This document shows, one piece after another, positions 12,421 to 50,740 of a stretch of DNA of 64,000 bases. The stretch's first letter is position 1. Every line of letters starts with the position of its first letter. Below the pieces are notes generated by a model. That model searched no databases and was not told the origin of the DNA. It saw nothing but the letters and a program-made list of their open reading frames with translations. The DNA lies in NCBI GenBank assembly GCA_963762115.1, contig CAVXJH010000003.1, forward strand, positions 32,001 to 96,000, given 5' to 3'. Source of the DNA: Candidatus Babeliales bacterium (GTDB taxonomy: Bacteria > Babelota > Babeliae > Babelales > JANWKD01). The translations under genes and the position numbers were made by a program.

Positions 12421-12495
12421 GCCGAGGTAGCTCAGTGGTAGAGCATGTGCCTGAAGAGCACAGTGTCGGTGGTTCGATTCCACTCCTCGGCACCA
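12421..12495 (+). tRNA. tRNA-Phe(GAA)
   Basis: Acceptor GCCGAGG/CCTCGGC, anticodon loop CTGAAGA, T-loop GTTCGATTC, encoded CCA. Confidence 0.97.
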
Positions 12496-12530
12496 GCTTT
12501 CGCCAAGGCTTCAGCTGGCAGGCCATTTTC
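12496..12530. repeat. Left arm only of the tRNA-3'-associated structured element
   Basis: GCTTTCGCCAAGGCTTCAGCTGGCAGGCCATTTT, identical to the sequence after tRNA-Leu (from 36972). Confidence 0.9.
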
Positions 12531-20865: not shown

Positions 20866-20942
20866 GGGCCCATAGCTCAGTCGGTTAGAGCAGTCGGCTC
20901 ATAACCGAAAGGTCCCTGGTTCGAGTCCAGGTGGGCCCACCA
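20866..20942 (+). tRNA. tRNA with CAT anticodon, probably tRNA-Ile2 (lysidine)
   Basis: Acceptor GGGCCCA/TGGGCCC, loop CTCATAA, CCA end; body resembles Ile2 rather than Met tRNAs. Confidence 0.88.
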
Positions 20943-20973
20943 GCTTTCATTTTTAGCAACAGAAAGGCTTGTA

Positions 20974-31848: not shown

Positions 31849-31957
31849 AATGTCATTGCGAGCGTAGCGTGGCAACCCAGATAATAAAGTTAATTCATCA
31901 TATGGAATTTATTAAATTTCTGGATCCCCACGTCACTGCGTTCCTCGGGAAGACATT
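31849..31957. repeat. RPE-like palindromic repeat (non-autonomous element)
   Basis: TGTCATTGCGAG..CGTGGCAACCCAG - AT-rich spacer - CTGG..CCACG..CTCG..GACA; same arms at 50461..50582. Confidence 0.85.
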
Positions 31958-36884: not shown

Positions 36885-36971
36885 GCGGAAGTGGTGAAAT
36901 TGGCAGACACGCAGCTTTGAGGGGGCTGTGGGAGAAATCCTGTAGGGGTTCGAGTCCCCTCTTCCGCACCA
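36885..36971 (+). tRNA. tRNA-Leu(GAG)
   Basis: Acceptor GCGGAAG/CTTCCGC, loop TTGAGGG, long variable arm, CCA. Confidence 0.96.
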
Positions 36972-37094
36972 GCTTTCGCCAAGGCTTCAGCTGGCAGGCC
37001 ATTTTTTTTAAATGACTTATGATAAGAAAATGTCTGCGAAAGCTGTCCGCCGTAGCTTGCCAAGCTGGTAAGCGTGGATAAGCGAAGGCTGGAC
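36972..37094. repeat. Complete tRNA-3'-associated structured element (copy after Leu)
   Basis: Two GC-rich arms separated by an AT spacer; homologous to 38867..38990. Confidence 0.92.
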
Positions 37095-37183
37095 TATTTT
37101 GCCAACGCTTCGTATTGTAGGTCTGAATTGAAAATTGAAATAAGAGTAGAATTGATTCAAGCATTGTTAGAAGGAAATATCGT

Positions 37184-38764
37184 ATGAATTCATCTTTGCG
37201 TACGTTTTTGCGTTCAAGTTTTATTATGTGGGTTGCATTATTTGTTGCAGGTTTTTTCTATTTGTTTACCTTTGAAGGATTTGTTCCTCATTTACGTAAA
37301 GATCGCATTAAATTTGGTATAGATCTTGTGGGTGGAACTTATATTACTTTGGGTGTTCAAGTTGATAAAGCTCTTGAGATCGATTTGAATGACAAAATTA
37401 TTTTATTAAACAAAAGTCTTTTAAAAGAAAATTTGGCTATACCTTTGTCACATTCAATTACCGGTAACAATGCTTCGTTAACGTTTGAAAGTTATGAACA
37501 AGCAAAAGCTGCAGAAGAAATTTTAAAAAGAGAACAAGAAATAGTTTCATCAGTTGATGGCACAAAGCTTTCAATGCACTTTAGAGATTCTTATGCAAAT
37601 AAGCTTCGTGATGCAGCTGTTGCAGGAAATATCGAAGTGTTAAGAACACGTTTGGATGGTTTGGGTGTTGGTGAAATTCCTATTGCCGCACAAGGTGAAA
37701 AAAGTATCATTATTGAATTGCCAAATGTTGATGATCCTCAAAAAGCGAAAGCAATGATAGGAAAACCAGCGTTATTAGAAATTAAATTGATTGAGCGTAT
37801 TGGCAGCAGTCCTGAAGAAGTTTTAGATGCTTACGACGGAGAATTACCTGATGGTATGATTATTATTCCTGGTAAATCGCGTAGCTTAGAGGGTGCAAAG
37901 AGATATTATCTAGTGCCAGCATTTACTGATTTAACAGGTCGTTTACTCAAAAATTCCTACGCAGGTTTTGGTGGAACGATGAATTCAGAGCCTGTTGTTC
38001 ATTTTGAATTTAATCCAGAGGGTGGTCAAAAGTTTAATGAACTAACGCGTAAAAACTATAATCGTCAACTTGCGGTGATTATTGATGGTGTTGTTATTTC
38101 TGATCCTCGTGTCAATGAGCCAATTGGTGCACAAGGTATTATTCATGGTAACTTTACTTTAGAAACCGCTTCTGAACTTGCTTCAATGTTGAAATCGGGA
38201 GCTTTTGTGGCGCCGGTTACTTTTGAAGAAGAACGTCAGATTGGTCCATCTTTAGGACAAGAATCAATTCGTCAAGGGTTACTTGCTTGTTTGGTTGGAT
38301 TGCTTTTATTATTTGTCTTTAGCGTGATCATGTATAAGCTTGCCGGTGTTTTTGCTGTCATGGCATTGGTGTTTAACTTGTTGCTCATTTTGATTGTTCT
38401 TGGCGCTTTGCAAGCAACATTAACCTTACCGGGTATTGCTGGTATGGTGTTAACGATTGGTATGGCAATTGATGCTTCGATCTTAATATTTGAAAAAATG
38501 CGCGAAGAATTAGCTACAGGAATGCCACTTGGGAAATCTATAAATTCTAGTTTTTCTGATGCAATGGAAGTAATTTTAGATTCCAACATTACAACATTTA
38601 TTGTTGGTATTGTGTTATATAAATTTGGTGCAGGTCCAATTCAAGGTTTTGCGTTGACATTGATGGTTGGTATTGTTGCAACATTAATTAGTGGATTGTT
38701 TTTTTTACGTTCCATTTTTTCCTTTTATGTGTATACTTTAGGTATGCAAAAGTTAAAAATTTAG
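37184..38764 (+). CDS. secD: Protein translocase subunit SecD
   Basis: FGIDLVGG, LRTRLDGLGVGE, IGPSLG, LTLPGIAG..GMAIDASILIFEK. Confidence 0.96.
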   Translation: MNSSLRTFLRSSFIMWVALFVAGFFYLFTFEGFVPHLRKDRIKFGIDLVGGTYITLGVQVDKALEIDLNDKIILLNKSLLKENLAIPLSHSITGNNASLTFESYEQAKAAEEILKREQEIVSSVDGTKLSMHFRDSYANKLRDAAVAGNIEVLRTRLDGLGVGEIPIAAQGEKSIIIELPNVDDPQKAKAMIGKPALLEIKLIERIGSSPEEVLDAYDGELPDGMIIIPGKSRSLEGAKRYYLVPAFTDLTGRLLKNSYAGFGGTMNSEPVVHFEFNPEGGQKFNELTRKNYNRQLAVIIDGVVISDPRVNEPIGAQGIIHGNFTLETASELASMLKSGAFVAPVTFEEERQIGPSLGQESIRQGLLACLVGLLLLFVFSVIMYKLAGVFAVMALVFNLLLILIVLGALQATLTLPGIAGMVLTIGMAIDASILIFEKMREELATGMPLGKSINSSFSDAMEVILDSNITTFIVGIVLYKFGAGPIQGFALTLMVGIVATLISGLFFLRSIFSFYVYTLGMQKLKI

Positions 38765-38789
38765 GTAAACTTTCTTTAATAGAGATAAA

Positions 38790-38866
38790 GGCGACGTAGC
38801 TCAGCTGGTTAGAGCGGCGGAATCATAATCCGTAGGTCCGGGGTTCGAGTCCCTGCGTCGCCACCA
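38790..38866 (+). tRNA. tRNA-Met(CAT), elongator type
   Basis: Acceptor GGCGACG/CGTCGCC (paired first position), anticodon CAT, CCA. Confidence 0.9.
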
Positions 38867-38990
38867 ACCTACGCCAAGGCTTCGGCTGGCAGGCCAATTC
38901 TTTAAATGAATTTGTTATAACTAGAAAATTGACGTAGGTTGTCCGCCGTAGTTTGCCAAGCCGGAAGGCATGGATAAACGAAGGCTGGAC
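38867..38990. repeat. Complete tRNA-3'-associated structured element (copy after Met)
   Basis: Homologous to 36972..37094 with compensatory substitutions. Confidence 0.92.
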
Positions 38991-50460: not shown

Positions 50461-50582
50461 TGTCATTGCGAACCCTGCTTTCAATAAGCAGGGTGTGGCA
50501 ACCCAGAATTTTGGTAAATTTTTTTTTAATGAACTAATTTTATTATCTGGGTCACCACGTCACTATGTGACTCGTGATGACA
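50461..50582. repeat. RPE-like palindromic repeat, full copy
   Basis: TGTCATTGCGA..GTGGCAACCCAG / CTGGGTCACCACG..CTCGTGATGACA. Confidence 0.85.
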
Positions 50583-50702
50583 ACGGTGATTATTTCGTTT
50601 ATTTTGAATATCGAGTTTGCGTTAATGATAAATTAAACGGCGCCCTTCATGTATGAACAATTTGTAGTTCAAATAAAGGGAAAATAAATAGAATTTTATA
50701 CG

Positions 50703-50740
50703 CTGGGTTCCCACGGCACAACGTGCCTCGGAATGACATT
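50703..50740. repeat. RPE-like repeat, isolated right arm
   Basis: CTGGGTTCCCACGGCACAACGTGCCTCGGAATGACATT. Confidence 0.75.

Follow-up and report, generated by a model that had tools for sequence, protein, structure and literature searches.

A hairpin element at the CCA ends of tRNA and tmRNA genes in Babeliales, probably spread by a small GIY-YIG nuclease

The 64,000-nt window analysed here (G000:C3:32001-96000, where G000 is the Babeliales genome under study; coordinates without a contig name are window positions) contains, behind the tRNA-Leu and tRNA-Met genes around secD, two structures that are gene-less copies of a hairpin element docking at the CCA ends of tRNA and transfer-messenger RNA (tmRNA) genes; a search for open reading frames in the window copies found none inside either element. 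Genomic comparisons indicate a DNA hairpin element whose spread is probably driven in trans by a GIY-YIG nuclease of 80 residues, the gene for which lies behind some of the copies. The element is likely selfish DNA, which would be cut and copied between tRNA ends in an integrase-free, nuclease-assisted manner.

Architecture and covariation of the element

Copy 1 follows tRNA-Leu(GAG) (36885..36971, plus strand), whose encoded CCA (36969-36971) is both the docking point and the first strand of the copy, and copy 2 follows tRNA-Met(CAT) (38790..38866, plus strand) and docks at the CCA at 38864-38866; both tRNA genes were called by ARAGORN. The gene secD (37184..38764, plus strand) lies between the copies. 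An earlier note on this DNA had placed the start of both structures precisely at the CCA, and this was confirmed; the left edge of the element is exact and its right edge is ragged. The full order is tRNA-CCA, left arm, linker with a second CCA, spacer, inverted junction copy and right arm, often followed by a nuclease gene on the same strand. The left arm has the design CCA-NNN-TWC-GC-loop-GC-TWC-NNN-TGG; in copy 1 (GCT subtype, 36969..36994, minus strand) it reads on the minus strand as a 6-bp stem, a GAA/GAA internal loop, a further stem and a C-TT-G apical loop, and in copy 2 (ACC subtype, 38864..38889, minus strand) the internal loop in the minus-strand reading is GAA/GTA. The linker CAGG and the second CCA of copy 1, a direct repeat of the tRNA CCA, occupy 36995..37001 (plus strand) and are followed by an AT-rich spacer (37002..37035, strand not assigned), which was aligned with the spacers of other copies; the linker, second CCA and AT-rich spacer of copy 2 span 38890..38931 (strand not assigned). 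The distal inverted copy of CA-NNN-TWC-GC (37036..37045 and 38932..38941, plus strand) forms the 3' strand of a long-range stem, in which 36970-36979 pairs with 37036-37045 in copy 1 and 38865-38874 with 38932-38941 in copy 2. The right arm (37046..37094 and 38942..38990, plus strand) repeats the left-arm unit on the plus strand, with a GTA/GAA internal loop in copy 1, and in copy 2 it is followed by a CDP-alcohol phosphatidyltransferase (pgsA-type) gene; the GWA/GWA internal-loop design that the note had recognised in the left arm on the minus strand and in the right arm on the plus strand is thus common to both. A third window copy (12493..12525, minus strand), at the CCA of tRNA-Phe(GAA) (12421-12495), consists of the left arm and linker-CCA only and is identical to the left arm of copy 1. 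At 20940-20948, the CCA of another tRNA-Met(CAT) (20866-20942) precedes GCTTTC, the six bases with which the left arm of copy 1 opens; this may be a remnant.

The long-range stem differs between copies 1 and 2 at three pairs, each compensated, and the right arms contain two further compensated changes, as had been noticed earlier. The proposal that the CCA takes part both in this stem and in an alternative left hairpin holds in that both stems are present; the local left hairpin of copy 2, however, contains one mismatch, A-C on the plus strand (G-T on the minus strand). Support for the helices was measured by pair counts in alignments. In an alignment of 25 copies (the two window copies and 23 of 30 regex-parsed copies, seven being excluded as bad parses or near-duplicates), 96.8% of the long-range helix positions are paired and four of its ten pairs are changed on both sides; the two mutually exclusive helices are each about 97% paired, against 16-44% in slid controls. 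The NNN triplet after the CCA takes 17 forms in 95 unique metagenome copies and matches its local partner in 87 of them (shuffle mean 13.7, maximum 26), and, of the 61 copies with an identified distal copy, 50 show a match of the triplet to that partner (shuffle mean 8.6, maximum 21). Since the copies are related, these counts do not represent independent events, and relatedness inflates the numbers. Covariation of a further hairpin, NNN-TGG with the second CCA, was seen in the metagenome set only, and not in the Babeliales or Alphaproteobacteria sets; its apparent plus-strand bias was reproduced by shuffles and was discarded.

Folded as plus-strand RNA, copies 1 and 2 have z-scores of -4.6 and -3.6, respectively, with none of 200 shuffles as good. 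The computed minimum free energy structure of copy 1 is another fold, where the CCA pairs with the 3' strand of the right arm; it lacks the long-range stem, which is therefore supported by covariation and not by energy.

The family at tRNA ends, its nuclease partner and its turnover

A search of the genome and beyond, as the note had advised, revealed a family that is present genome-wide, in other members of the phylum and in metagenomes. An nhmmer model built from the two copies gave 20 matches at E<1e-5 in the genome, and a strict unit regex found 49 units, versus 4-11 in five shuffled genomes. By eye, a hairpin starts from the CCA at 18 of 41 ARAGORN tRNA calls, and also at the tmRNA, the element-bearing tmRNA of G000 having been missed by ARAGORN. 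Fourteen units begin at a tRNA CCA in antisense orientation, 13 of them at one shared offset and the remaining one a single base off owing to the tRNA end set by ARAGORN; all 11 units located farther 3' of tRNAs are on the sense strand. The left-arm pattern occurs in 99 of the 151 genomes of the phylum, with one match for a reversed control pattern. The predicted tRNA adjacency was borne out when 30 loci were chosen by the hairpin alone: 23 lie at an ARAGORN tRNA or tmRNA end, one more lies at a tmRNA identified by eye and three others follow short CCA-ending stretches resembling displaced tRNA ends. A metagenome scan requiring a T-arm yielded 105 loci, with a GC content of 29-66% among the matches listed.

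Several tRNAs are empty in both G000 and its congener G001, namely Leu(TAG), Trp, Thr(GGT), Thr(TGT), Gly(TCC), Val(GAC), Ile and Cys, and these have another tRNA or a core gene close behind them, which may point to selection against insertion at such ends; the secD- and pgsA-linked tRNAs are exceptions. The right arm of the tmRNA copy is interrupted by an opposite-strand transposase-like gene (IS110-like by eye; G000:C6:169300-170490). A repeated module resembling a miniature inverted-repeat transposable element, with 14-bp inverted ends and one to four GWA units, was found at G000:C3:502000-502300 and C3:527640-528045 with no nearby tRNA. Four tRNA calls with atypical 3' ends lie near a contig end (G000:C5:171339-177582), possibly in foreign DNA in the assembly.

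The note had asked whether a nuclease gene neighbours any copy, and such linkage is clear. G000 contains six GIY-YIG matches and five Y1 transposases; three of the six GIY-YIG genes (~80 aa) directly follow the element, at tRNA-Arg(TCT), at C5:156 kb and at C5:148.6 kb, the last being broken by a stop. Of 47 homologue loci, 44 have a tRNA or tmRNA no more than 500 nt upstream and share the arm design; these are mostly at Bradyrhizobium tRNA-Ala, and also at tRNA-Tyr, tRNA-Val and a tmRNA in an Anaerohalosphaeraceae genome. A tRNA or tmRNA is upstream in 24 of 30 Babeliales nuclease loci, the other six having hairpin remains by eye, and in the relative G029 (locus L024) a hairpin with the nuclease occupies the site orthologous to that of copy 2. 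The nuclease gene is downstream of the hairpin in 28 of 76 metagenome loci of sufficient length. Across the 151 genomes, 82 contain both the hairpin and the nuclease, 17 the hairpin only, nine the nuclease only and 43 neither (Fisher p 3e-15, a value overstated by the kinship of the genomes). The nuclease is 78-87 aa long, without a separate DNA-binding domain; its catalytic Y, Y, G, R, H and E positions are invariant in 23 of 23 aligned proteins. The nearest solved relatives are UPF0213 and SLX1, and an NCBIfam search gave no family over the cut-off. In locus L233, which lies upstream of 40094 in G046:C1, a tRNA-like sequence represented by its 5' third runs straight into the CCA, the element and the nuclease, which suggests a deletion or a join at an ACC microhomology within the tRNA.

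Comparison of close relatives shows one subtype of the element substituted for another, subtypes acquired and units stacked, at various tRNA ends. At 30 secD loci the tRNAs are conserved and the element is patchy; a strict call finds it at 8 of 28 orthologous tRNA-Leu sites and 5 of 28 tRNA-Met sites, with a few more by eye. Two alleles of the tRNA-Leu site, each represented by a single contig (depth 9.5 and 3.8, respectively), were found in runs X1 and X4: the X1 contig, with 11 differences over ~360 nt at the start of secD and one over the tRNA, has another hairpin subtype from CCA+2 and rejoins at 37085, and the X4 contig (four differences in 174 nt) switches at 36980 to a third form.

The comparison of G001 with G000 covered 34 tRNAs, from 30 of 36 loci obtained and five others, with calls made by eye. 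The element is present in both genomes at 14, in G001 only at four, in G000 only at two and in neither at 14; the subtype is kept at just one of the 14 shared sites (Lys-TTT), and at the two G000-only sites G001 holds other DNA, an island in the case of Arg-TCT. Eleven tRNA ends in G001 are occupied, always from the CCA, by a subtype that G000 lacks and that has a long, distinctive loop; three of these ends are empty in G000, and one of the 11 copies precedes an intact nuclease frame. At tRNA-Phe and Thr-CGT of G001, this subtype stands ahead of a complete unit of the presumed older type and the CCA is repeated; stacked units with a repeated CCA also occur at loci L199, L275 and L289. The spacer of copy 1 and that of the tmRNA copy (G000:C6:170569) are identical at 31 of 33 aligned positions, whereas all other pairs share 48-81%. 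Exact matches to the IHF consensus site were found in 3 of 36 spacers against a mean of 0.24 (maximum 2), and matches with one mismatch in 10 against 4.7 (maximum 11), a weak signal on which no claim is based.

Putative mechanism and rival explanations

In the proposed mechanism, each arm would fold in single-stranded DNA, the left arm on the non-transcribed strand and the right arm on the transcribed one. The nuclease would likely recognise the GWA/GWA hairpin and nick near its foot, which for the left arm coincides with the tRNA CCA junction, and host recombination might then use the homology of the CCA and the hairpin to copy in an element, with a different tRNA locus or incoming DNA as the donor. 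With the inverted junction copy, the GC-GWA-NNN-TG signal would be present on both strands. A natural candidate for the first occupation of an empty tRNA end would be pairing of the TGG/TG of the element with the CCA of the gene.

The loops bear on the choice between DNA and RNA. A two-base TT loop is a stable loop in DNA. Among 160 left arms, 97 have a loop of DNA type (C-GNA-G, Y-TT-R) on the non-transcribed strand; among 44 right arms, 25 have such a loop on the transcribed strand and one has a GNRA loop. GNA triloops with a C-G closing pair are described as very stable in DNA (PMC3201870). The unit on opposite strands, taken with these loops, fits single-stranded DNA rather than an RNA switch. 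The alternative that the element is a co-transcribed RNA controlling tRNA 3' processing, termination or downstream gene expression can nevertheless draw on the CCA being paired in computed precursor folds, on the covariation of the long-range helix, on a weak terminator-like stem with a T-run called in both copies (36983-37000 and 38878-38895), and on C-TNC-G loops in 31 of 160 left arms, which are readable as RNA cUNCGg tetraloops on the transcribed strand. It does not explain why the element is missing at most orthologous secD-flanking tRNAs and at over half of the tRNAs of the genome, or why subtypes swap between near-identical relatives; moreover, the commonest left loop on the transcript is AA (66/160), the stems are almost all Watson-Crick with rare and unbiased G-U pairs, the Rfam comparison matched the element to no described family and the terminator scan was at chance level (four found; shuffle mean 2.0, standard deviation 1.7), as was a promoter scan. 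An RNA control is very improbable, and the suggestion of the earlier note, a switch for tRNA maturation or for read-through into secD and pgsA, is not supported as the main role in view of the patchiness at orthologues, the changing subtypes and the Rfam result; an RNA side effect on transcripts is possible.

According to another explanation, the hairpin and nuclease are a domesticated guard of tRNA attachment sites that restricts incoming single-stranded DNA or integrative elements, much as SsnA, together with its NTS repeats, lowers transformation by restricting transforming DNA (main text of PMC11893778), and the spread is a by-product. Cassettes (element plus nuclease gene) and serine-integrase islands do compete for tRNA ends in G000 and G001; such islands lie at tRNA-Glu and tRNA-Gln (G000:C5:148600-164260, C5:10466-10876 and C3:125844-127379). 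Both intact G000 cassettes abut opposite-strand N-terminal integrase remnants cut to the first 32-52 codons, the younger tRNA-Glu cassette truncating the integrase of the first island after codon 52, and the long retention at Bradyrhizobium tRNA-Ala also suits a guard. However, a remnant is downstream at only 1 of 30 Babeliales nuclease loci, that of G000 itself, so that integrase knock-out was rejected as a general trait (two further integrase matches were found among 11 family loci, none established in an abutting position). Islands have also integrated at cassette-bearing tRNAs: at tRNA-Glu of G000, two of them each displaced a cassette, the older of which still adjoins tRNA-Glu in G003. 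Together with in-frame stops in 7 of 150 nuclease matches, among the matches listed, this makes a guard unlikely. A passive spread, where RecA-type gene conversion homogenises resident hairpins, inverted-repeat template switching produces the covariation and the nuclease is a passenger or has another target, would agree with the X1 and X4 alleles, which exchange internal parts and keep others, with the ragged right edge and with the nearly complete Watson-Crick pairing of the stems; it seems quite improbable, as it does not account for how tRNA ends that are otherwise empty came to be occupied at a single exact register, for the clade-specific linkage of the nuclease or for the conservation of unpaired GWA loops.

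Nuclease-assisted copying between tRNA ends has to be weighed against several observations of its own. Cleavage and movement are deduced from comparison rather than observed; moreover, GIY-YIG enzymes are not known to make a covalent intermediate, so that the nuclease could not itself join strands. The UNCG-readable left loops would also suit RNA, and a strand test by G-T versus A-C wobbles revealed no bias in local or distal stems. The register of stacked units is weakly above neighbouring offsets (7 versus 1-4 of 145), the breakpoints of secondary and truncated copies scatter and map no cut site, and the G001-only sites could be losses in G000. A single Bradyrhizobium locus, tRNA-Ala(GGC), supplies most of the set of 44 of 47, and the cassette there appears to be inherited stably; the 17 hairpin-only genomes have no detected nuclease, related genomes do not count as independent cases, and the association between a retained distal stem and the nuclease is only a trend (p=0.07). 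A search for a vehicle found no pattern matches and two nuclease loci in viral contigs, and none in plasmids.

A wider proposal, which is tentative and rather doubtful, is that the family represents a new minimal class of mobile DNA, a DNA-guided system in several bacterial phyla where an 80-aa nuclease and hairpins finding tRNA and tmRNA ends by TGG/TG-CCA pairing sweep the tRNA set within a genus with no integrase or transposase. The ends of tRNA genes are the most used integration sites in bacteria, and nuclease-assisted copying, if it takes place, would add an integrase-free route to them; it would also account for hairpins behind tRNA genes, which are easily taken for RNA motifs or terminators. 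The nuclease clade, a large and uncharacterised set of stand-alone GIY-YIG proteins (of 7,995 scored candidates, 7,569 clusters at E<=1e-20), would then gain a predicted substrate and role in parallel to the Ssn enzymes; a site-specific single-stranded DNA nuclease of ~80 aa could also serve as a tool.

Comparison with known systems

The closest functional parallel is the Ssn system, where, according to the main text of Chenal et al. 2025 (PMC11893778), SsnA is a single-domain GIY-YIG nuclease cutting single-stranded DNA beside its own hairpin; the authors raise a domesticated mobile origin, and the words tRNA and tmRNA are absent from that main text. Like Ssn (SsnA with NTS/SRM), the present family ties a small single-domain GIY-YIG gene to its own multi-copy oriented hairpin across phyla. 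Unlike Ssn, the hairpin has GWA/GWA internal loops, docks at the CCA of tRNA and tmRNA genes and has its arms upstream of the gene (25 of 30 loci by regex) instead of inverted hairpins on both sides; the DNA downstream of the cassette nucleases is unrelated or consists of same-strand remains of older cassettes. The published degenerate SRM pattern has no matches in the genome, which rules out SRM identity by this pattern, and the pattern also misses a separate NTS-like family of the genome. This second repeat (TGTCATT.CGA ... GTGG.AACCCAG) has ~56 copies genome-wide, often as inverted pairs; those in the window are at 31851-31882 (plus strand), 50461-50515 (plus strand) and 50690-50738 (minus strand), and inverted pairs enclose two SsnA-like GIY-YIG genes (G000:C3:532988 and C3:558445). 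In a tree, used as a proxy for membership of the CDD model cd10448 to which SsnA-type nucleases belong, 49 cassette nucleases and 17 NTS-like-flanked genes split with 100/100 support, the groups having been gathered by separate queries and the SsnA-like label coming from the flanking repeats; a tRNA or arm is upstream of none of the 17 SsnA-like genes. From this and from the separate tree group it follows that the genome contains two nuclease-hairpin pairs side by side, each having a repeat of its own. At G000:C3:175841, C3:325214 and C6:386474, hybrids contain the GWA/GWA unit in the loop of the NTS-like repeat.

In construction, the element resembles the repetitive extragenic palindromes (REP) and their REPIN and BIME assemblies, which are associated with RAYT transposases and form inverted pairs; a CCA tail is present at the end of some REPs (Di Nocera et al. 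2013, PMC3733652). The units of the present element likewise form inverted pairs around a variable spacer, many copies being gene-less and few enzyme-linked, and at tRNA ends these multi-copy extragenic hairpins have the first unit antisense and later units sense. The differences are the lack of the terminal unpaired GTAG/CGTC tag (the GTA/GAA of the element form internal loops, and the unit most often has CTG or ATG as its 5' leader), the GIY-YIG partner and the strict tRNA-end position. The view of the earlier note that this is a REP/REPIN-like single-stranded DNA element targeting tRNA 3' ends agrees with the tRNA adjacency, the nuclease linkage, the opposite-strand symmetry and the rapid turnover; an HUH/RAYT partner was rejected, as the five near-identical Y1 genes (G000:C3:498763, C6:283117, C6:404294, C7:24556 and C5:13616) have their own IS200-type ends and no unit nearby.

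Islands that integrate by tyrosine or serine integrases likewise use the 3' ends of tRNA and tmRNA genes, form tandem stacks there and do not disrupt the tRNA. The element differs from them in having no integrase, a size of 0.03-0.5 kb, repetition of only the CCA and not of a tRNA 3' segment, and no defined right end; the integrases seen near cassettes belong to separate islands. Free-standing GIY-YIG homing endonucleases combine nuclease-triggered copying by host repair with gene birth and death, and in contrast to them the cassette nuclease (78-87 aa) has no separate DNA-binding domain, occupies non-allelic tRNA loci and is accompanied by gene-less copies. No description of the element was found in literature searches judged largely from listings, in a collection that contains few subscription papers. 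What is added here is the sweep at the level of a genus, the alleles at one site, the stacking, the displacement and the control provided by a side-by-side SsnA-like system. The element works like Ssn/NTS and is built like a REPIN, but departs from them in the pattern, layout, tag and enzyme features tested.

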